64,000 bases of DNA from a virus (lineage: Duplodnaviria > Caudoviricetes), in IMG/VR virus record IMGVR_UViG_3300032320_001009, positions 25,244 through 89,243 of that record; one strand, given 5' to 3'. A model generated the notes under the pieces. It had not been told where the DNA came from and did not search any database. It saw only the letters and a list, made by a program, of their open reading frames with translations. Shown here one piece after another: positions 25,200-64,000 of the stretch. The translations under genes and the position numbers were made by a program. Each line of letters begins with the position of its first letter. The stretch's first letter is position 1.

Positions 25200-25637
25200 A
25201 TGGCACGAGCAGCCGATGCACCACGTGACTTCACTGGTGACGACTTAATATCACAAGCAAAGGAATACATTGCTGTAAAGAAAAACATTGACCAGTATGA
25301 AGAAAGGCAGAAAGAACTAAAGGCTGCACTCTTCCTACAAATTGATGAAGGTGGTTTTGAAGACGACAAGGGAAACATCTGGTTAGAACTTCCAGAAGCA
25401 ATTGATGATTACCTTAGCCTTCAAAAGCAAAAGCGTGTATCACGCAAAATTGATGAGGGCGTTGCAATGACTCTCATTGAAGAAAAAGGTTTAAGAGACC
25501 GTCTTATCAAAACTGTTGAAGTTGTTGATGAAGACGAACTAATGGCTGCTCTTTATGACGGCACATTAACTGAAGAAGAAGTCGATGAGATGTTCCCAGC
25601 AAAAATTGTTTGGGCACTAACATTGAGTAAGAAGTAA
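25200..25637 (+). CDS. Hypothetical protein (N-terminal coiled coil)
   Basis: SD GGAGG; 145 aa. Confidence 0.65.
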   Translation: MARAADAPRDFTGDDLISQAKEYIAVKKNIDQYEERQKELKAALFLQIDEGGFEDDKGNIWLELPEAIDDYLSLQKQKRVSRKIDEGVAMTLIEEKGLRDRLIKTVEVVDEDELMAALYDGTLTEEEVDEMFPAKIVWALTLSKK

Positions 25638-39818: not shown

Positions 39819-40018
39819 TGGATGACGGCGATGGTGGCTTCATCCTAGAGATGCAAGCCAAAAAAATTGTAGATAACGCTATGAGTTATAACGGTTCACA
39901 CCCATGCCCACAATGTGGCGTAATCATGAATCCTGTTCAAGCGATGTACAGTAAAGGTATGTGTGCAGATTGTTTTTCACAGCATTCAGCCAAACGTCTT
40001 AAGGATAGGATGGCGTAA
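39818..40018 (+). CDS. Small zinc-ribbon protein
   Basis: CPQCG..CADC. Confidence 0.65.
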   Translation: MDDGDGGFILEMQAKKIVDNAMSYNGSHPCPQCGVIMNPVQAMYSKGMCADCFSQHSAKRLKDRMA

Positions 40019-40926
40019 TGGCAAGAAAAAAGGCTAGTTGGGTTGGACCAGTAAATCCAGCAGACCCAACAACAGGTATACTTCGCCCAACAGGTGAACT
40101 GAGTGCAGAAGCACGTGCAGAGTCTGAAAGAACTTCTCCACGCCCTAAAGTTAAACCTAAAGACAGTAAAAAAACACAGACATTAACTAATTCAAGAACA
40201 GGTAAAACTGAAGAAAGAGTAAGCAACGTAAAGTTTTTTAAAGAACCTGTTGTAAAACGTCAAAAGCCAAAAGTAAAAACAACTGAAAACCTTAAAGCAG
40301 CAGAAGTTCGTCCACCAACAAATGCTGAATTAGGTAAAAAAGTTACCTCTGTTTCTACAGTTCCAAAAACCCGTAAGAAAAAGGCTCGTGGAAAATCTGT
40401 TGCACGTGACCCAAAAACAGGTCGTGCAAGAGCAAAAACCACAGAAGAATTAACTACTGTACTTGCTCCTGCTGGTAGAGACGTTGTTGAAGGGGCAACC
40501 CCTCAAACTCCCCGTCCTTTACAACGTGTCTCCACAATTAAAGACGGAGTTCGTGGACACAAGGGTGCAGCAATTAGTCATAAAGAAGTTGCAGATATGG
40601 TTTCTCAAGCCAGAGGACATCTCACTCAAATGACTTTGACCCGTAATACCCCAGCATTCCACGAGCATCACGAGAACTTTAACCTCGTCCATGCCCAACT
40701 AGAAAAACACGCCCCTGCTGCTCACCAAATTTTAGGAATTATGCGCCATTTGACCGTAAACCCAACCCCAGAAAGTGCTGACCACTTTGAGTTAGCAGAC
40801 AAAGCCCTAGGAGATACACTTTCAGCGTATAAGGCTAAAGACTCTCACAATAAGAAGAGTAGTAGATTTGCGTACGCAGAACGTGTTCGCGGGATTAAGG
40901 CAGAAAGAGCAGGTACAACAGAATGA
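40018..40926 (+). CDS. K/R/T-rich disordered protein with helical C-terminus
   Basis: 302 aa, coupled. Confidence 0.65.
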   Translation: MARKKASWVGPVNPADPTTGILRPTGELSAEARAESERTSPRPKVKPKDSKKTQTLTNSRTGKTEERVSNVKFFKEPVVKRQKPKVKTTENLKAAEVRPPTNAELGKKVTSVSTVPKTRKKKARGKSVARDPKTGRARAKTTEELTTVLAPAGRDVVEGATPQTPRPLQRVSTIKDGVRGHKGAAISHKEVADMVSQARGHLTQMTLTRNTPAFHEHHENFNLVHAQLEKHAPAAHQILGIMRHLTVNPTPESADHFELADKALGDTLSAYKAKDSHNKKSSRFAYAERVRGIKAERAGTTE

Positions 40927-41240
40927 TTGGTTGGAATGACCGCCGTAAGGCAAAGAAGGCTGCAAGTAATACGACCAAAGCACAGATTGCTGCTATGGCA
41001 AAAGCGGGAACGCTACGTGCAGAACCAAAGCGTTCAACAGATAAATGGGCAAGTACTGGAAAAGATGAACGCCAGGCTGTTGCTAGTGAAGCACGTCAAG
41101 TTGGTTGGGAAGCAGGAAATGACCCATACGCCAGAGGAAAAAACTACAAGACTGCAGCAAAACGTGTTTCTGATAACCCTGCAAAGTATCACCTAAGTGA
41201 TAAAGAACCAATGCGAGCAAACCCAAAGAAAGCGAAATAA
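40923..41240 (+). CDS. Basic hypothetical protein
   Basis: 105 aa, ATGA coupling. Confidence 0.6.
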   Translation: MIGWNDRRKAKKAASNTTKAQIAAMAKAGTLRAEPKRSTDKWASTGKDERQAVASEARQVGWEAGNDPYARGKNYKTAAKRVSDNPAKYHLSDKEPMRANPKKAK

Positions 41241-41242
41241 TC

Positions 41243-41449
41243 ATGGCTGTTAACTCATCACGTTCAATGAACAAATCACTTGCTGAAGGTTCAACAGACG
41301 GTAAGTACCGTAAGGTTCACCCTGATACAGAAGTTATTGCTGGTGCAGGTAGCGAAGTTACTGACGCAAACCGTCAGTCTCTCCACCCATTCTTTGGTTA
41401 CGGATTCGCAACCACCGAGACACCAAACAAGGTAAACCCAGGAGCCTAA
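41243..41449 (+). CDS. Hypothetical protein
   Basis: 68-aa in-operon ORF. Confidence 0.55.
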   Translation: MAVNSSRSMNKSLAEGSTDGKYRKVHPDTEVIAGAGSEVTDANRQSLHPFFGYGFATTETPNKVNPGA

Positions 41450-41450
41450 C

Positions 41451-41633
41451 GTGGTAAAAAGACCACGAAGCATTGGTGGTCGAGTAGGTAAACACACTGC
41501 CAAAAGTGTAAAGACAGAGTTTACTGAAGACCGCAAATCAGGTGGTGGCGATAAGCCATCTGCCAAAAAAGGTTCACGTGTACGTAAGCCTATTCCGACT
41601 ATACGTAGTCGTAAGAAACACCAAACTTCTTAA
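41451..41633 (+). CDS. Small, highly basic protein
   Basis: GTG start, K/R-rich. Confidence 0.5.
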   Translation: MVKRPRSIGGRVGKHTAKSVKTEFTEDRKSGGGDKPSAKKGSRVRKPIPTIRSRKKHQTS

Positions 41634-41691: not shown

Positions 41692-42258
41692 ATGTCCAAA
41701 ATTCCATTACTAGGTCAACCAAAAGATAAGTCCTACAACCAAGGACCACTCTTGCGTCTTTTGCACTGCATGGTTTGTTCTTCATTAGAAGAACTTCCTC
41801 CTTTTGAAGGTTTACCAGAACATGACCATCTACTAGCAATTGCTTGTGAGCGTCATAAGTTTCCTTCAGGGGAAGAGCACAAGGGATTGCTATTTATTGT
41901 TCCTGTAATGGCGTGGGCTAATAAAGAAGCCCGCGAAGACATCATCCGTCAAATCAAAGGCGGAGGGTCAAAGGGTCTTGCAGAAATCGATGATAAGTAT
42001 TACGAAAGTAAAAGCACTTTTTCTGCAGATGCGATGACCTGCTGGAAGAAGCATAATAGCCCACAAGATTCTTGTGGTGACTATGAGGATTCTTCAAAAC
42101 GTCTTTTACCCGACACAGGTAAAGAGCGTAAAGAACTTGGCTTGGCTTCTTTAAAAGAGGCTCCTGGTCCAAAAAACTATCTATGCCACTTTTGCCCAAT
42201 TCACAGCAAAGTGGTTACCCGCAAACGACAACTGTTAGGAATGTACGATGGCAAATGA
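41692..42258 (+). CDS. Cys/His-rich hypothetical protein
   Basis: HCMVC, C..H, CW..H..C, CHFCP; SD AGGAG. Confidence 0.7.
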   Translation: MSKIPLLGQPKDKSYNQGPLLRLLHCMVCSSLEELPPFEGLPEHDHLLAIACERHKFPSGEEHKGLLFIVPVMAWANKEAREDIIRQIKGGGSKGLAEIDDKYYESKSTFSADAMTCWKKHNSPQDSCGDYEDSSKRLLPDTGKERKELGLASLKEAPGPKNYLCHFCPIHSKVVTRKRQLLGMYDGK

Positions 42259-42580
42259 AAATGCAAAAGAAGTAGAGTTCTATTTTATTGTGGCTGTAGA
42301 AAAAGACGGCTCAATTCAAACACACCGCGAAATGCCAGAAGGCATGGAAGCAGAGCGTCCATTTACAACGCTTGATATTTACAAGGTTGCACAGGAGATT
42401 GTCTCTGACATCAAAGACCAACTTCTTGCAGACCGTGTAATTACAGGTTTGATGAATGTTATGCAAGCACAGCAACAGCCAGTAAGTGCTCGTGTTGCTG
42501 AGGCTCTTAAAGAACGTGGAGTTGAGTTTAATGCTGGAGAACAGACTGTTGAGTTCTCTGCAGAAAACGCCGAGGACTAA
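42248..42580 (+). CDS. Hypothetical protein
   Basis: 110 aa, overlapping start. Confidence 0.6.
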   Translation: MANENAKEVEFYFIVAVEKDGSIQTHREMPEGMEAERPFTTLDIYKVAQEIVSDIKDQLLADRVITGLMNVMQAQQQPVSARVAEALKERGVEFNAGEQTVEFSAENAED

Positions 42581-42805: not shown

Positions 42806-43747
42806 ATGAACCGCAACGACGCTTTAAATCGGGTGGTTGGCTCAGTTACTATGGCTGGGTCAGCCACTTCGTATTTTTCTAAGCCTGAAGAAAACCTAGA
42901 CCCTGGGTTATTTGTTGGGCAACACATGAAGCCGTGGGTTCGCAACAGCATTTTGCGAATGTTAAATGAGTTCTTATCTAAGAAGTACAGCCAACCTTAC
43001 ACATGGTCAACTGTGTGGATTGCTGGTTCAGGGGTTTCCTACCAATGGAGTGCACAACGCAGTCCTGGAGACCTCGACGTTTTAATTGGCGTTGATTACG
43101 AAACCTTCCGTAAGACACACACCGATTACATGGGTTTGTCTGATACAGAAATTAGCAAGATGCTAAATGAAGATTTTCGTAAAGGACTTATGCCTCACAC
43201 AAAAAACTGGGAAGGTTACGAAGTAACGTTTTACGTAAACCCAGGAGCAACAGACATCAGAGTTATTAAACCCTACGCTGCCTATGACCTAACCCATGAT
43301 GAATGGACAGTTCATCCTGACCCTGAAGCACAGGCTCAAATTCAACCTGTGTGGGAAGAAGCAGCAAAACGCGACCACCAAAAAGCAATTGAGATTGTGT
43401 CTCGCTACAGCAAAATAACAACAGATTTACAAGCAGCCAAGAACGACCCTGCTCGTAGAAATGCAGAGTCCTACATGATTGTTCTTTTAGAACAAGCCAG
43501 TGCTCTTTATGAAGACATCCACGGAAGTCGTAAGCAAGCATTCTCTAAAACAGGAGAAGGTTACGGAGACTTCTACAACTACCGTTGGCAAGCAGGAAAG
43601 CGATTGGGAACAGTCGCAGCATTGAAACGTCTTAAAGACTTTTACGACGATTATAAAACCGCAGACGAAGTTACCACTTATGGTGTTGAACTTCCCGACA
43701 CAAGTACCCTCATCAGACGAGCAGCGATGTATAGGGTAGGAAAATAG
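42806..43747 (+). CDS. Pol-beta-superfamily nucleotidyltransferase
   Basis: AGSGVSY...GDLDVLI (GS + DxD) and YEVTFY (third carboxylate). Confidence 0.8.
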   Translation: MNRNDALNRVVGSVTMAGSATSYFSKPEENLDPGLFVGQHMKPWVRNSILRMLNEFLSKKYSQPYTWSTVWIAGSGVSYQWSAQRSPGDLDVLIGVDYETFRKTHTDYMGLSDTEISKMLNEDFRKGLMPHTKNWEGYEVTFYVNPGATDIRVIKPYAAYDLTHDEWTVHPDPEAQAQIQPVWEEAAKRDHQKAIEIVSRYSKITTDLQAAKNDPARRNAESYMIVLLEQASALYEDIHGSRKQAFSKTGEGYGDFYNYRWQAGKRLGTVAALKRLKDFYDDYKTADEVTTYGVELPDTSTLIRRAAMYRVGK

Positions 43748-43753
43748 GAACAC

Positions 43754-44221
43754 TTGAACGTACTCGTATCACTAGAAGGCGTAATGTGTTCGGAACAAAG
43801 CACTCCTAACCGAACAGGCATCCTTCTTTATTACTGGCTAGTTGCCAACAATCGTGTTGCCATCATGACTTCGTGGAAGAAAAAAGACGCTGAATTTTGG
43901 TTGATGTCTAATGGAATCATTGACTATGCCGAACTGATTGATGACTCCTATGAACTTCTTGGTGAAGATTTGCCCAGAAGACAAATCACCGTTGCACGGT
44001 CTAGACAACCTGTAGAACTTCTTTTAACTGCTGACCCTTCCTTAGCAGCGTGGGCATTTGAGCAGGGGATTCCTTCTTTAATGTTTTCCCACCCAGATTC
44101 CATTGGAGTTGCTAACCGACCAGGCATGAGAGCCTGGGGAGAAATCGAGGAAGCGATTACCCAAAAGCACATTAAACGTTCTTTAGATGTCCAAAAAGAA
44201 CATTCAATGTTTACGGATTAA
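43754..44221 (+). CDS. HAD-fold-like protein lacking the DxD motif
   Basis: N-term VLVSLEGV (vs hhhDxDG), VAIMTS. Confidence 0.5.
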   Translation: MNVLVSLEGVMCSEQSTPNRTGILLYYWLVANNRVAIMTSWKKKDAEFWLMSNGIIDYAELIDDSYELLGEDLPRRQITVARSRQPVELLLTADPSLAAWAFEQGIPSLMFSHPDSIGVANRPGMRAWGEIEEAITQKHIKRSLDVQKEHSMFTD

Positions 44222-44225
44222 GTAA

Positions 44226-45743
44226 ATGAACATTGTTTTTGGCGGGGTAGAGGTTGGAAGCAACCGCACACTTTTAGAGTCTATGCAGGTCACCCGTATG
44301 GGGCTGTCTTTTTACGCCCTAAAGAAGCGAGGACTTCCCAAAACGAAGTTATGGCTGGCATCTGAGCACTTCCTACCAGATACCCAATTGGTTTTAGATT
44401 CTGGCATTGCCCAGGCTGAACGTGATGGGCTGTCAAAAGAGGAACTAACTTCTTTAGCCTCCGAATACCAAGAATTTGTCGCCAACAACCTGGAGTTCAT
44501 CTGGGCATTCATTGAGCCAGACTCCCAAGTCCTAGGATTGGACTGGGTTCTTCAGGAGCGAGCCTCCTACGAGCACGACCCTAAACTTTGGGTGGTATGG
44601 CACGAATCCTACGGGGTTCAGAGGCTCAGAGACTGGTCTAAGAGGCACTCTAACATCGCCATACCTCACGAGACGATAGAGGCTGTAACCAGCCTTGCAG
44701 GGCTTACAAGGGCATTGGTAGCCCAGCACCCCGTAGCCTTTCATGGACTAGGCTGTGCCAAGCCTGACAACCTACGTCAGATACCCTTCACAACCGCTAC
44801 AACCCTCTCATGGCTCTCTCCCATGCGTCGGGGGGAAACGATTATTTGGGATGGAACAAAGGTTGTTCGATACCCCAAGAAGATGTTGGAGCAAGCCCGC
44901 AGACGTTACTCGTCAGTAATATCTAAAGAAGGTTTGGACTTCAACAAGTTCTTAAACAACGATGGCGTAGAGTCAGCCAAAGTCGCCGTATGGTCTTACA
45001 AGCAATTGGAGAAATCAATGGACAAGAAACGCCCCGACCTTCACGTTATCAAGGGTCAAAATAACGACCTATTATCTGATAACAGCGATACCCCACTACT
45101 ATCAGGTTTAGGGGAAATAGGGGAGTACCTTTCTGATAACAGCGACCTTGACATGCGGAAAAATTCTGACCTAGAAGAGCCTAAAAAGGTCATAGAAAGA
45201 GACCCTACAGAGGTTACAAGCCTCCCTGTTTTTGGCTACAAGATGAAGACCGTTGTTGAGACTGATGACGATGGAAACGACGTTCTAAAAGACGTTCCAA
45301 TGGTGCAGAGCACAGGGGTTTCCCTACGACAATGTGACACTTGTTTTGTCGCTTCGAACTGTCCAGCCTTCAAACCACAGAACACTTGTGCCTTCAATCT
45401 ACCTGTAGAGGTCAAGACTAAAGAACAACTAAAAGCATTATTAAATGCCGTAATTGAGATGCAGGGAGCAAGAGTTGCCTTTTCTCGCTTCGCTGAAGAA
45501 CTCAATGGTGGCTACCCTGACCCTAATACTTCTCAAGAAATTGACCGCCTTTTCAAGTTGGTCAAGGGTATGAAGGAGTTGGAAGAAAACCGAGAATTCA
45601 TTAGGATAACCGCCGAACGACAGTCGTCGGGTGGAGTGCTTTCAGCCATTTTTGGAGACAGAGCACAGGCTTTAAAAGACCTTCCAAATGGGGGTTTGAC
45701 AGAGGCAGATACCACAAAAATCATTCAGCAAGGCATCGAATAG
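44226..45743 (+). CDS. TGT/DpdA-like barrel fused to a Cys4 plus helical domain
   Basis: LDSG, VWH, HGLG, TATTLSW..RRG; C-term CDTC.....C........C. Confidence 0.55.
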   Translation: MNIVFGGVEVGSNRTLLESMQVTRMGLSFYALKKRGLPKTKLWLASEHFLPDTQLVLDSGIAQAERDGLSKEELTSLASEYQEFVANNLEFIWAFIEPDSQVLGLDWVLQERASYEHDPKLWVVWHESYGVQRLRDWSKRHSNIAIPHETIEAVTSLAGLTRALVAQHPVAFHGLGCAKPDNLRQIPFTTATTLSWLSPMRRGETIIWDGTKVVRYPKKMLEQARRRYSSVISKEGLDFNKFLNNDGVESAKVAVWSYKQLEKSMDKKRPDLHVIKGQNNDLLSDNSDTPLLSGLGEIGEYLSDNSDLDMRKNSDLEEPKKVIERDPTEVTSLPVFGYKMKTVVETDDDGNDVLKDVPMVQSTGVSLRQCDTCFVASNCPAFKPQNTCAFNLPVEVKTKEQLKALLNAVIEMQGARVAFSRFAEELNGGYPDPNTSQEIDRLFKLVKGMKELEENREFIRITAERQSSGGVLSAIFGDRAQALKDLPNGGLTEADTTKIIQQGIE

Positions 45744-45800
45744 TTATCTGATAACAGTAAGTGGAGGAGGGTGGAACAAGGTGGGGGCAAGTGGAGCACT
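45744..45800. repeat. TTATCTGATAA palindrome followed by four GTGG repeats at a 10-bp period
   Basis: GTGG at 45761, 45771, 45781, 45791. Confidence 0.8.
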
Positions 45801-47930: not shown

Positions 47931-49484
47931 ATGGCATACAAAACGGACAACATAGTAATTCTTGGTGGGGGTTCTGCTGGCTGGATGTCAGCAGCAACCC
48001 TCATTAAGGCTTTTCCTCATAAGAAGATTACTGTCGTAGAAAGTTCTTCTATCCCAAAGGTTGGTGTTGGAGAAAGCACTTTAACCAACATAAACATTTG
48101 GCTTGACTTCTTAGATGTTGATAGAACTTCTTTTATGAAGTACACGAACGCTGCTTTTAAAACCTCTATTGGATTTACAAACTTCTTTAAAGAAAAATCT
48201 GACACGTTTTTTGTCCCGTTTGGTGATGCAGACTTTATTCCAGGAAGTTTTGGGCACAACAACTGGTTCTTTAAGAAAGCCCTGTACCCCGAAACCCCTA
48301 ACACAGATTACTTTGAGTTCTTTTTCCCTAGTGCTCACCTTGTTAAAGACAACAAACTTGTAATGTGGGAACACCCTGACATGCCTGTGTACAAACCTGA
48401 CCGAGATGTGGTGTACCAGTTTGACGCTGCTTTGTTTGGTGCATGGCTTGCAGAAGAATACGCAATTCCAAAAGGTGTTAACAGAATTATTGGTACAGTT
48501 AAAGAGGTTATCTCCGATGAGTATGGGGTTAAAGAACTTCTTTTAGAAGACGGCACTCGTGTTGCTGGTGATTTATTTATTGATTGCTCAGGCTTCAGAA
48601 GCATCTTGCTTGGTCAACACCTAAAAGAACCATTCATTACTACAAAAGATGTTTTGCCAAACAATAGGGCTTGGGCTTCTCCGATTCAGTACACCAACAA
48701 AGAAAAAGAACTTCAAGTATTTACAAATTGCACAGGATTAAAGAACGGCTGGGTTTGGAATACACCGTTGTGGTCACGCATTGGTTCAGGGTATGTGTAT
48801 AGCGATGAGTTTATTGATGATGAAACAGCCTTGAAAGAATTTAAGGCTCATCTTGATTCTGAAAACATGGTTGTTTATAACCCTAACCGTTCGAAAGAAA
48901 TGGACTTTCGTCAGATTGAAATAAAGAACGGCTACTACGAAAGGTTTTGGGTAAAAAACGTAGTTGCCATAGGTTTGTCAGGTGGATTCCTTGAGCCTTT
49001 AGAAAGTACAGGGCTTTACTTTATCCACGAGTTTCTGTTGTTACTCGTTGACGCTTTAGAGCGTGAGCAGGTAACCCAATGGGATATAGCAACGTGGAAC
49101 AAAGCAACAAGAAACAACTTTGAGATTCAACTTGACTTTGTTGCTTTGCATTTTGCGATGTCTTTAAGAGACGATAGCCTTTATTGGAAGAAACTTACAA
49201 TGCAAGACATGAAAGACAGTTTTGTAAAGCGTGGCACTGAAAAGTATTACGACCGACAATTTAGTGGCTTTCAATTTAACGCTCTTGCTGCAGGAATGGG
49301 CTACAACCCTATAACTGCTAGAGTGGTTAAAGACGTTAAGTGGTCATACGGTATTGACAGGAAGTTTGAAGCAGACATAATCATAGGAATACAGCACGAC
49401 AAGGTTGAGAAGTGGAAATTAGCAATTGCTGGATTCCCGAGCCATTACCAATACTTAAAGGAAAACATTCATAATGAATCTTAA
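47931..49484 (+). CDS. Flavin-dependent (tryptophan-type) halogenase
   Basis: GGGSAG, VGES, FK.SI.F (catalytic Lys), FIDCSG, GWVWNTP, FLEPLESTG. Confidence 0.9.
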   Translation: MAYKTDNIVILGGGSAGWMSAATLIKAFPHKKITVVESSSIPKVGVGESTLTNINIWLDFLDVDRTSFMKYTNAAFKTSIGFTNFFKEKSDTFFVPFGDADFIPGSFGHNNWFFKKALYPETPNTDYFEFFFPSAHLVKDNKLVMWEHPDMPVYKPDRDVVYQFDAALFGAWLAEEYAIPKGVNRIIGTVKEVISDEYGVKELLLEDGTRVAGDLFIDCSGFRSILLGQHLKEPFITTKDVLPNNRAWASPIQYTNKEKELQVFTNCTGLKNGWVWNTPLWSRIGSGYVYSDEFIDDETALKEFKAHLDSENMVVYNPNRSKEMDFRQIEIKNGYYERFWVKNVVAIGLSGGFLEPLESTGLYFIHEFLLLLVDALEREQVTQWDIATWNKATRNNFEIQLDFVALHFAMSLRDDSLYWKKLTMQDMKDSFVKRGTEKYYDRQFSGFQFNALAAGMGYNPITARVVKDVKWSYGIDRKFEADIIIGIQHDKVEKWKLAIAGFPSHYQYLKENIHNES

Positions 49485-51048: not shown

Positions 51049-52344
51049 TCACCTTTCTCCCAACAGATACTCGTCGGCAAGTTCCCCTGCTTTCGACTGC
51101 TGGTGACGGATACGGTGTAAGTACCGCTCCGTAGTTGTGATTGACTGATGACCCAAACGTTCTTTAACCTCGTGTATGTCAACCCCACCCTTCAAAAGAA
51201 GTGTGGCATTGGCATGTCGTAGGTCATGCGTTCTTGGATACCAACCAATACCTGACTTTTCTATGGCATCGTTCCAAGTGGCTCGCCACCTTTCACGACT
51301 TAAGTGCCCCGAGAAATTACTTCTAGAGACGCTTCTGCCTTTTGATTTGTCCTTTCTGTATTGTTTACGGTATTTGTTAACCGCTTGTTTACACAGGTCA
51401 CACCTGCACCCACCGACGTTATAGGAGTACGGAGTTGCGTGTTGGAATCGTTTGACTCCAACGGTGTAGTGCGATTCAGTCCTTTCTGTCAGACTTCCTG
51501 TTGCTATTAGTTTAACACTAGGAGTAACAGTCTCCCTAGAAAATAGCAATCCATTTGTGGTCAATTTGTGCTTAGCGATGTGTTTTTGTAATGTATTTAA
51601 CACCGCTTTGCTTAAAACGATAGTTCTTTTATGACCAGTTTTTGTAGTCGGAACGATGAGATAACGTGACCCATTATTGTGCTGACTACCTACATCACTT
51701 ACTGTGCGACGAACGTAAACTTCTTTTGACTTAAAGTTAATATCCTTCACACGTAGTTCTGTTGCTTCTCCAAAGCGACAACCACTAGCAATCAGAAACT
51801 CAGCAAAGAGTCGAGCACCTTCTGTAGGTAAGTGCTCAAGTATCTTCTTAAAGTCGTCAGGCTCTAGGTTATTGAATGGGTCAGCGTGAGGTACTTTGAC
51901 TTTAACGCCATGCGTAGGGTTGCTTGGCATTTGCTCATCTTCCACAAGTGGGCGAAAAGCAGACCCCAAAGCAATCTTTACATGGGCTATCGTCGATGGG
52001 CTTACACCTTCTTTAAGAAGTTTCTCGAAAAGGCTACGCACATCACGTTTCGTTATGGTAGTTACTTGTCTGTGACCTAAAGAAGGAACAACATACTTCT
52101 TTAATGCCACAGCATAAGTTTTGCGGGTGCTTATACGAACATCTGTTCTAGAGAGCCAATCTTTTAAATAGGCTTCTAGCGTTGTACGCAATTCAGGGTT
52201 GTCAGAGATTAATCCTTCTTCAGCAAGAAGTGCAGAATTCAAGGCTTTGGCTCTTGAACCGAATGTACCTGCACTCCTTACCTTGTTTAGACTGTCTTTG
52301 TAATAACCTGTAAAGCGTTTGTTTCTTGCTACGACATAAGCCAT
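51049..52344 (-). CDS. int: Tyrosine integrase with a Zn-finger insertion
   Basis: GCRFGE (R), TK (K), HDLRH, LGH, TTERY; N-terminal arm-binding region. Confidence 0.93.
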   Translation of the reverse strand: MAYVVARNKRFTGYYKDSLNKVRSAGTFGSRAKALNSALLAEEGLISDNPELRTTLEAYLKDWLSRTDVRISTRKTYAVALKKYVVPSLGHRQVTTITKRDVRSLFEKLLKEGVSPSTIAHVKIALGSAFRPLVEDEQMPSNPTHGVKVKVPHADPFNNLEPDDFKKILEHLPTEGARLFAEFLIASGCRFGEATELRVKDINFKSKEVYVRRTVSDVGSQHNNGSRYLIVPTTKTGHKRTIVLSKAVLNTLQKHIAKHKLTTNGLLFSRETVTPSVKLIATGSLTERTESHYTVGVKRFQHATPYSYNVGGCRCDLCKQAVNKYRKQYRKDKSKGRSVSRSNFSGHLSRERWRATWNDAIEKSGIGWYPRTHDLRHANATLLLKGGVDIHEVKERLGHQSITTTERYLHRIRHQQSKAGELADEYLLGER

Positions 52345-63119: not shown

Positions 63120-64000
63120 GTTGTTACCTTTCGAGTAGTTGATTGATTAAGTGATTACGTTGCGTAGTTAGTTTTAATAACTACACACCACCGAATTAAT
63201 TTCTGTCACGAATTAATTCGATAGTGCGTATTTATTTATTGAGCAACCGATTTAGTTTTCGCAGAGTGCGTAGTTGCAATTGGTCAGTTACGAGTTTGTA
63301 TTGCAAAGTACAAACAAGAAAGTTGTTTCCGTATTAACAACCGCAAGTTGTTACTGTACGAATTTAATCGAGTAACTGTTAGCAAGTTGTTACAACGTCA
63401 GGTAGTTATTTAAAAAGTCATAAATATTATTTTGTTTTTTATTTTGTAAATAAATTTATTGGTGAAATTTATTTTGCAAAAGAAATTACAAAACCTTTTT
63501 TAACTACCGCCTCGACAAAGACCCTCGGGCTGACCAACAAGAGAATTCTCTCATGACTTGGGGTAGTTATGCAACCTGCGTGTCTTACGCATAAATAGTG
63601 CAATTTTTGGCGTGCATTCTCGGGGCACGTCGATGATTGGGGTTTAAGGGGCGAAGCCCCTTTAGTAATAAATAAATGATTGTTGATTATGTTTATTGAT
63701 ATAGATAAGAGATAGAAGATAGATAAACACTTATGCACTTAGCAATTAGTAATTGATTTAAATAGATAATTAATAAGTAATTAAAGTAGTTAGTAACAAT
63801 GTGTTTACACGTTGTATGTATCTGATAACAGCGTGGTGTACTGCTTGTTTGGCTGGTGTTATTCGCACAAGCAATTGCATTACAAATACAGTAGCCAACA
63901 CTAACTATCACGTGCACTATCAATGCTTATTTTATTTATTTATTTACACGTGAATAGAACACGTAACACAAGTGTTAGAAACTAATTGTTAAAGAAGTTA
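63120..64000. promoter_or_regulatory. AT-rich non-coding control region
   Basis: No credible ORF; palindromes, direct repeats and a mini-hairpin; upstream of the leftward arm. Confidence 0.6.

Follow-up and report, generated by a model that had tools for sequence, protein, structure and literature searches.

What does a phage do with a DpdA-like protein that has lost the nucleophile of its family, and which other genes belong with such a protein? This question is raised by a stretch of 64,000 nucleotides of a virus of the Caudoviricetes (IMG/VR record IMGVR_UViG_3300032320_001009, positions 25,244 to 89,243), called the window here, which is the last 64 kb of an 89-kb viral contig with an estimated completeness of 93%. 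Three genes follow one another on its + strand: gene A (42806-43747, 313 amino acids), gene B (43754-44221, 155 amino acids, TTG start) and gene C (44226-45743, 505 amino acids). According to the list of open reading frames (ORFs) the gap is 6 nucleotides between A and B and 4 nucleotides between B and C, which agrees with the tightly spaced, co-oriented genes described in the initial annotation, made by a model from the sequence. The present analysis focuses primarily on gene C, which is built, as modelled, on the fold of the tRNA-guanine transglycosylases (TGTs) and of DpdA, and whose alignments indicate a family-wide loss of the nucleophilic Asp together with retention of the base pocket in the clade of the window, and on its neighbours B and A, a candidate nucleotidyltransferase (NTase).

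The product of gene C consists of three parts, all encoded on the + strand: a TGT/DpdA-fold TIM barrel (residues 1-268, 44226-45029), an acidic and Ser-rich linker with two SDNSD repeats, predicted to be disordered with a local confidence score (pLDDT) below 50 (residues 269-330, 45030-45215), and a region comprising a β-hairpin, a Cys4 knuckle and four helices (residues 331-505 and the stop codon, 45216-45743). The AlphaFold2 (AF2) model has a pLDDT of about 97 over residues 1-267, is disordered over residues 270-320 and is moderately confident in the C-terminal domain. When this model was searched with Foldseek, the top 50 matches were TGTs plus Cap10 (probability 1.0, E 3e-6), and the alignment of the barrel (residues 1-273 or 1-289) by VIA-align with an archaeosine TGT (1iq8), a bacterial TGT (2qii), Cap10 (9ntn_A) and a bacterial DpdA (7ui4) gave Z scores of 17.1-17.8 over 238-270 residues. 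Sequence profiles point in the same direction: a profile of 118 members of the C family matches the DpdA of Escherichia phage CAjan in hhalign with a probability of 97.4% (E 1.3e-11, 229 columns), phmmer with the CAjan DpdA finds distant C-family members in the locus set at 7e-6 to 1e-2, and phrog_887 ("queuine tRNA-ribosyltransferase") covers C end to end (E 5.6e-54). On the other hand, no TGT/DpdA model in Pfam, NCBIfam or PADLOC matches C, the Pfam TGT family matches nothing along the entire 89-kb contig, the C family could be aligned with Escherichia coli Tgt by hhalign only in a non-significant stretch of 28 columns on the DSG motif, phmmer of A, B and C against the PDB sequences gave nothing, and an ESM Atlas search with the C-terminal domain returned no named relative.

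On these models and profiles, C begins with a genuine TGT/DpdA-fold barrel and continues through a disordered linker into a Cys4-helical domain, and the initial annotation, which had recognized the family from the motifs LDSG (residues 57-60), VWH (124-126) and HGLG (173-176), was right about both motifs and fold. The CxxCx5Cx8C motif and the helical domain that it described are also present, the knuckle being C370-x2-C373-x5-C379-x8-C388 (45333-45389, + strand), in which C370, C373 and C379 never vary, and C388 almost never, in alignments of 118-132 sequences. The C-terminal domain is the best-conserved part of the protein, with a mean identity among representatives of 41%, compared with 30.5% for the barrel and 14.6% for the linker. 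The family is large, with at least 1554 C homologs at 90% clustering and 813 representatives at 50%; IMG/VR scans with the single proteins P0340 and P0324 gave no matches.

Bacterial DpdA (bDpdA) and its relatives act on DNA, three Asp residues have been described as invariant across TGT and DpdA, and replacement of the general-acid or the nucleophile Asp of bDpdA by Ala abolishes base exchange (PMC10164549). In the alignment with CAjan DpdA, the residue D58 of LDSG (codon 44397-44399, + strand) takes the position of the general acid/base Asp (bDpdA Asp95, Zm TGT Asp102), D99 that of the base-recognition Asp (bDpdA Asp130, CAjan D105) and H173 that of a conserved His, while T192 (codon 44799-44801, + strand), within the motif TATTLSW (190-196), falls on the Asp of CDSSSW, the nucleophile of DpdA and TGT (bDpdA Asp256, Zm TGT Asp280), 19 residues after the conserved His. 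The spacing between T192 and H173 equals that noted between the catalytic D248 and H226 of Cap10. The Thr which the initial annotation read in place of the nucleophilic Asp is thus found there by profile-profile alignment as well. Two sets of sequences were compared at this position, the 120 closest C homologs (at least 63% identity) and a family alignment of 132 sequences, that is, 131 full-length representatives clustered at 50% and the window. The close homologs have Ser (103), Thr (16) or Met (1) and never Asp; the family alignment has Ser in 57 sequences, Ala in 19, Thr in 15, Gly in 15 and others in the rest, with Asp in a single one of the 132. D189 was considered as a displaced nucleophile, Asp being present there in 42 representatives, and was rejected, since this residue begins strand 188-193 at a distance from the catalytic end and the window has Thr in its place.

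The rest of the site is kept in the clade of the window. All 120 close homologs have E97, D99, W125, H126, H173, T193, S195, W196 and the four Cys; at position 58 they have an acidic residue without exception (Glu in 100, Asp in 20), and S59 is invariant or nearly so. Such invariance of pocket residues indicates a site under purifying selection, not a decaying one. In addition, position 204 is acidic in 127 of the 132 family sequences (71 Glu, 56 Asp) and E9 is present in 116. As read from the alignments, then, the nucleophile is lost family-wide and a guanine-type base pocket is retained in the window's clade. The label "pseudo", or degenerate, given to C at first was overstated, since D/E58, S59, E97, D99, H126 and H173 are invariant or nearly so, and the acidic residue at 204 and the inteins described next argue for a working site.

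Several C homologs carry additional domains. Those of 814-865 amino acids (P0319, P0368, P0371 = L090:7001-9565, and P0390) hold inteins with LAGLIDADG domains, inserted, in window numbering, before C373, near C388 and at the junction G203-E204|T205. Insertion at three conserved sites of C is the behaviour expected where sites are conserved and functionally important. Two representatives (P0272 and P0279) carry at the N-terminus, in frame, a domain of the HNH endonucleases (Pfam HNH, 30 and 32.6 bits, both over the cut-off), which could be either a true fusion or the read-through of a homing endonuclease gene, and which fits a DNA-directed role. Natural fusions of A or B with C were sought in 150 representatives and none was found, the N-terminal extensions being HNH domains and the long forms inteins.

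Does the loss of the Asp go together with other changes in the genome? Two relatives that keep it offer a comparison. Gp21 of the Bacillus phage BCD7, listed as DpdA with preQ0 genes in Hutinet 2019, reads GDSTTW, and its gene adjoins FolE, QueC, QueD and QueE genes (QueC E 4e-35); no other relatives of it were found in IMG/VR. In the Bacteroides phage BS162P1 the family is split (L160:2070-4501): a QueC-family gene (E 1.6e-12) stands directly upstream of a 275-amino-acid barrel gene, followed by a 251-amino-acid Cys4/helical gene, and the barrel (hhalign 98.5%, E 1.6e-15) reads VDSVTW. The Cys4/helical domain is accordingly also present in the Asp-keeping relatives, and no homologs of A or B occur in the roughly 14 kb (BCD7) and 8 kb (BS162P1) surrounding their C genes. 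On the Asp-less side, about 140 loci show no Que genes in the 6-7 kb or so around C, and no QueC is found in the complete genomes of the Streptomyces phages BRock and GiJojo; Hutinet 2019 counts the C ortholog of BRock among the singleton DpdAs (Supplementary Data 1). The entire 89-kb contig contains no gene for QueC, QueD, FolE or a radical-SAM protein, which extends the absence of Que and FolE genes noted earlier for the window. Retention of the Asp thus appears to go with deazaguanine synthesis genes, and its loss with B, with or without A; because only two Asp-keeping examples were available, this contrast is a lead and not a statistic.

The linkage of B and A to C is widespread. Gene order is A-B-C in all 57 close IMG/VR loci with enough upstream DNA (median B-C gap 2 nucleotides). 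Among 32 distant IMG/VR loci, in which C is 30-35% identical to that of the window, jackhmmer detects all three genes in 25 and the B-C pair in 4 more, and in GiJojo and BRock the order is A (38% identity), B (28%), an additional gene and C (31%). Of 17 loci from GTDB genomes, almost all of Actinomycetota (Streptomyces, Kitasatospora, Nonomuraea and others), 16 contain B and 8 contain A. The co-conservation of the three genes, on which the idea of a module depended, therefore holds in every close locus and most distant ones, and B homologs stand just upstream of C in nearly all Asp-less loci. Since B is kept more widely than A, B and C are regarded as the core pair and A as a frequent third member.

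Some loci depart from this arrangement. The extra gene between B and C in BRock-type phages encodes 276-388 amino acids, occurs in 13 loci (for example L001:5008-5838 and L002:4787-5953) and belongs to no known family. A lineage with a strongly altered C pocket (YTS..GP..WT..V) has a 210-amino-acid protein in the place of A upstream of B (L087:5908-6540, L088:2230-2862), with a sub-threshold match to VWA_2. Furthermore, genes of the Acb2/Tad1-hairpin Pfam family lie 1-4 genes upstream of the module in two distant lineages (L085:1126-1356; L087:5561-5908; L088:1883-2230). Acb2 and Tad1 are anti-CBASS and anti-Thoeris sponges, CBASS being the cyclic oligonucleotide-based antiphage signalling system.

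Gene A can reasonably be described, on its model and motifs, as an intact Pol-beta NTase resembling the minimal nucleotidyltransferases (MNT) and the aminoglycoside nucleotidyltransferases of the ANT type. The GS..DxD..E motifs that the initial annotation saw are present as G74-S75, D89-L-D91 (G74 to D91 at 43025-43078, + strand) and E139; in 25 A-family members of 33-84% identity G74, S75, D89 and D91 are invariant and E139 nearly so, and the protein looks catalytically intact, as had been supposed. The AF2 model (pLDDT 88.6) has an MNT-like alpha/beta core at about residues 31-164 and a long helical bundle at 178-310, and its N-terminal domain aligns with the minimal NTase 1ylq_B (Z 6.6, 89 of 93 residues, identities in the 18-20% range) and with HI0073 (1no5_B, Z 6.4, 97 of 102 residues, 20% identity). 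The Foldseek list from the PDB is rich in NTases (CD-NTases, TUT7, ANT(6), AadA, FAM46 and MNT), yet all at E of 0.036 or more and none below 0.001; the CD-NTases among them, at E 0.04-0.2, are not significant matches, and the N-terminus of A reads MNRNDAL.... BFVD contains an ortholog (TM 0.93) and ten phage relatives (E 1e-10 to 2.5e-7), which are uncharacterised, one of them being annotated as an NTase and one fused to an amidoligase. Pfam DUF6932 scores 20.2 bits on A of the window against a cut-off of 27 and matches 5 of the 25 members (E up to 0.1, best 5.4e-4). The family has motifs of its own, SYFS.P...LDP.LF near the N-terminus and H239..R242..G.GY.D..N.RWQ..K in the C-terminal part.

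Gene B, the small partner, starts with MNVLVSLEG when read from the TTG at 43754; an alternative ATG lies at 43784, the ESM Atlas entry beginning at an ATG 10 codons after the TTG, and the TTG start includes an N-terminal strand that is conserved in the homologs. Its description as a pseudo-phosphatase of the HAD (haloacid dehalogenase) type stands in part: the SLEG start (residues 6-9) is there and the first Asp is missing, while the HAD fold is unconfirmed, with a motif pattern and sub-significant matches behind it. None of 30 members of the family has Asp where HAD proteins have their first one, the residue there being hydrophobic or small in every case, and the second is Glu, Asp, Asn, Ser or Trp; the pattern of a hydrophobic strand, x-[EDN]-G-[VI]-h, a strand ending in Thr or Ser, and then ..DP...A.....G.P resembles HAD motifs I, II and IV minus the first Asp. 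The HAD label is best taken as an unverified lead. ESM features are closest to NIF-type HAD (0.87, again a lead only) and the best HAD match in a PDB profile search is 3u26 at a sub-significant E of 1.6. None of the 30 members matches Pfam, B of the window matches no PHROG, hhalign with E. coli GmhB gives a probability of 0.5, and the B profile finds nothing in the E. coli chromosome.

How, then, may the three genes work together? The explanation that we prefer, tentatively and at somewhat less than an even chance, is a neofunctionalised DpdA module, in which an Asp-less C that reads bases acts with B, and A supplies nucleotidyl transfer. C would descend from a phage DpdA that already had the Cys4/helical domain at its C-terminus; a large lineage of phages of actinobacteria has lost the nucleophilic Asp, which forms the covalent sugar intermediate, and has kept the guanine-type pocket. 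With the Asp lost, C should no longer insert 7-deazaguanines by the double-displacement route of TGT, in agreement with the earlier judgement that canonical insertion is unlikely because C lacks the canonical nucleophile. It would instead serve as a base-recognising, probably base-flipping, DNA-directed subunit paired with B. A would be the only conventional catalyst of the module in most genomes and would nucleotidylate a target presented by B-C, either a DNA base or end or a partner protein. The fold and homology of C, the missing nucleophile, the conserved pocket, the gene linkage and the association of a retained Asp with a neighbouring QueC gene are what the analysis shows; the DNA substrate, the B-C(-A) complex and the nucleotidyl-transfer chemistry are what we infer. 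The genomic context is DNA-directed, with DnaB, primase, polymerase, recombinase and exonuclease genes upstream and nrdJ downstream of the module, in addition to the two HNH-bearing homologs. A bolder form of the proposal, which we consider improbable, sees B-C as a DpdA-derived base-flipping platform that presents guanine or another DNA or protein group to A; if true, platform and A would make a new nucleotidyl-type phage DNA modification or a nucleotidylated protein-DNA intermediate, and the chemistry of A would replace 7-deazaguanine insertion where actinobacterial hosts make no preQ0.

Several points weigh against this explanation. Half of the family representatives show an altered pocket (D58 to Glu, Tyr or His), a pattern better suited to a binding or scaffold role than to a single defined chemistry. 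Catalysis could come from E9 and from the acidic residue at 204, so that a transglycosylase or glycosylase activity of C may be possible. A is missing from about a third of the distant loci and may be accessory or unrelated. Related DNA polymerases (31-41%) and tail sheaths (32-37%) occur in the window, BRock/GiJojo and BCD7, and these shared genes, together with two further co-conserved genes, X and Y, described below, mean that part of the synteny is vertical inheritance; synteny is no proof of functional coupling. The B-C(-A) complex is itself a proposal, the fold of B is unverified, and no DNA modification is known to pair an NTase with a TGT fold.

The second of these points leads to the strongest alternative, namely that C remains active as a DNA transglycosylase, or acts as a hydrolytic glycosylase, through a rewired site in which D/E58, H173 with Ser/Thr192, or the acidic residue 204 would stand in for the lost Asp; it would insert a base taken from the host or remove one, A and B being accessory. 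We hold this to be rather unlikely, though better placed than the other alternatives. The invariant pocket of the window's clade, the near-universal acidic 204 with the intein at the E204|T205 junction, and the frequent E9 would suit such an enzyme; moreover, the family is listed as DpdA in Hutinet 2019, and singleton DpdAs of other phages use host preQ0 (PMC6884629). It is difficult to reconcile with the inactivity of bDpdA after the equivalent Asp to Ala change and with the invariance of the three Asp in TGT and DpdA (PMC10164549), with Ala or Gly at position 192 in 34 representatives, and with the Tyr or His that replaces D58 in many of the wider representatives. Nor does an acidic 204 go together with a missing Asp: BCD7 has one as well, and among the others BS162P1 has Thr and CAjan has Ser there. 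Furthermore, Mycobacterium, one of the actinobacterial host genera, is reported to be without Q/preQ0 pathway genes (Hutinet 2019).

Somewhat less probable is the view that the trio are unrelated neighbours inherited together, C being a DNA-binding or structural protein and its barrel a relic. The polymerase and sheath common to the window, BRock/GiJojo and BCD7 speak for common descent of the region, other genes can interrupt the Y-A and B-C pairs, many loci have no A, and the C-terminal domain is better conserved than the barrel. A relic would hardly keep its pocket residues invariant, as they are in the clade of the window. Moreover, B stays beside C down to about 30% identity and through rearrangements, the overlaps or 2-nucleotide gaps between B and C suggest translational coupling, and A and B are absent around C in exactly the two relatives that keep both Asp and QueC, as seen in their fetched DNA.

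A counter-defence or exclusion module is a further, improbable alternative. Here the Asp-less pocket would bind a 7-deazaguanine-type ligand without turnover, such as free preQ0-like bases, the deazaguanylated N-terminus of a CD-NTase (type IV CBASS), Dpd-modified DNA or the modified DNA of rival phages, and A would modify or mimic an immune component. Base-reading residues kept and a nucleophile lost are indeed the pattern of a binder, the Cap10 TGT fold holds a protein-linked deazaguanine and clamps an NTase (10.1101/2025.04.06.647259), and known defences include glycosylases directed at 7-deazaguanine DNA (10.1101/2025.10.29.685425). The element is temperate and has copies in chromosomal contigs of Actinomycetota, and the Acb2/Tad1-hairpin genes mentioned above are close to the module in two distant loci; the window itself has no Pfam match to this hairpin family. 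Anti-defence genes are patchy, whereas this module is near-universal and syntenic in a very large lineage and lies in a replication block; in addition, A is without the M(G/S)G(G/S)GG N-terminus, there is no Cap9/QueC, and the CD-NTase match is not significant.

RNA or tRNA repair or tailoring, with C as a TGT-like binder of the anticodon loop, B as a relic of a HAD phosphatase like that of polynucleotide kinase and A as the NTase, is very improbable: although TGTs bind tRNA, 1 of the 30 B members matches a polynucleotide kinase PHROG (E 1.6e-3) and MNT-type and TUT-type NTases appear in the weak fold list of A, the significant sequence link of C is to a DNA-acting phage DpdA and not to a tRNA TGT, B has no phosphatase nucleophile, the window has no tRNA genes, and the Asp-keeping relatives sit in DNA-modification clusters. 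Of the roles suggested at the outset, tRNA tailoring and nucleotide sensing find no specific support.

The setting of the trio is that of the end of a replication and nucleotide-metabolism block. On its 5' side are genes for a DnaB-like helicase, a primase, a helicase, a DNA polymerase, a UvsX-like recombinase, a Cas4-like exonuclease and a metallophosphoesterase, and directly on its 3' side a class II ribonucleotide reductase (nrdJ), which is followed directly by a gene of the flavin-dependent Trp-halogenase family (47931-49484, Pfam 3.6e-101, phrog_2928). The phage encodes a tail sheath and a baseplate, and it is temperate, given the integrase (51049-52344) on the opposite arm. A promoter and terminator scan gave no signal exceeding shuffles, and a DNA-level search against phage records gave zero matches.

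Two more genes on the + strand precede the trio. Gene X (41692-42258, 188 amino acids) is Cys/His-rich and has ORF matches in 94 loci, including distant ones and BRock/GiJojo; gene Y (42248-42580, 110 amino acids) belongs to a family that takes in GiJojo gene 176 and neighbours in L085, L092 and L128. Neither matches a Pfam or PHROG family, and although both are co-conserved with the trio, their membership in the module is uncertain. In GiJojo an endolysin gene lies between Y and A. Just 5' of X, at 40018-41633, are four small-to-medium ORFs that are very rich in Lys and Arg and match no family, and which could encode DNA-binding or internal proteins.

The sequence TCTGATAACAG is present in four exact copies (45075-45085, 45132-45142, 45747-45757 and 63821-63831), against a chance expectation of about 0.03. 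Two copies lie inside the linker of gene C, where they code for the repeated SDNS, and one is intergenic, 3 nucleotides past the stop codon of gene C. In copies 1 and 3 the match is longer and reads TTATCTGATAACAG, with the palindrome TTATC-T-GATAA inside it; this suggests a putative protein-binding site overlapping coding sequence.

What is new in these results must be separated from what is already known. The C family and its annotation as DpdA are known, DpdA is treated as a signature of 7-deazaguanine DNA modification (PMC10516641), and singleton DpdAs were left as an open question in Hutinet 2019. What appears to be new is that the whole family has lost the nucleophile, that this loss goes with the absence of Que genes, and that B(+A) are fixed partners; the papers searched contained no description of any of the three. 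A very large clade (813 representatives at 50%) is without the nucleophile and has fixed partner genes, and base-synthesis genes were not found near C. With the nucleophile and the Que genes missing, annotations such as "queuine tRNA-ribosyltransferase" or "DpdA" probably mispredict modified DNA in these phages. Because the clade includes the isolated phages BRock and GiJojo, experiments are possible, and the contrast with BCD7 and BS162P1 is a natural experiment on the re-purposing of a base-exchange enzyme, alongside Cap10 and ArcS.

Among known systems, the phage DpdA1 proteins (CAjan, 9g) have a barrel homologous to that of C and the same order of motifs, DSG, E.D, H and ..S.SW, and BCD7 gp21 is 23% identical to C over the full length and shares its Cys4/helical C-terminal domain. 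DpdA1 and BCD7 keep the Asp, whereas almost the whole C clade has Ser, Ala, Gly or Thr (Thr in the window), and there are no preQ0 genes, and B and A as obligate or frequent neighbours. The bacterial DpdA of the Salmonella Montevideo dpd system (7UI4) has the same fold as C (Z 17.1, rmsd 3.3 Å, 259 residues); C has equivalents of its Asp95 and Asp130 and none of Asp256, has a linker and Cys4 domain instead of the DpdA Ins8, and is not accompanied in the trio by a DpdB-type ATPase. A resembles MNT (of MNT-HEPN), HI0073 and the ANT, AadA and KNTase enzymes in its GS and DxD motifs, and ANT, AadA and KNTase in the helical bundle after the NTase core; it differs from MNT and ANT in that all matches are weak and in its own invariant N-terminal and H239..R242 motifs.

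The TGT fold is also found without transglycosylase chemistry, as a partner subunit or as a platform on which the flipped base undergoes another reaction, in the eukaryotic QTRT2 and in the TGT-like domain of the archaeal ArcS. The substrate of these proteins is tRNA, and their cells possess a catalytic TGT besides, unlike the phage of the window, in whose 89-kb contig the Pfam search showed no catalytic TGT/DpdA. The closest parallel in partnership is Cap10-CdnD of type IV CBASS (9NTN), in which a TGT-fold protein (Z 17.1 to C) is encoded with, and bound to, an NTase-fold protein, so that the TGT scaffold serves something other than tRNA base exchange (10.1101/2025.04.06.647259). Cap10 keeps its nucleophile D248, needs the QueC-like Cap9 and a Gly-rich N-terminus of the CD-NTase, and is without a Cys4 domain; the trio lacks the defining features of that system, having no Cap9, no Gly-rich N-terminus and no nucleophile, and gene A is MNT/ANT-like and not demonstrably a CD-NTase. 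By analogy, Cap10-CdnD is nevertheless a precedent for a TGT-fold protein that partners an NTase-fold protein.

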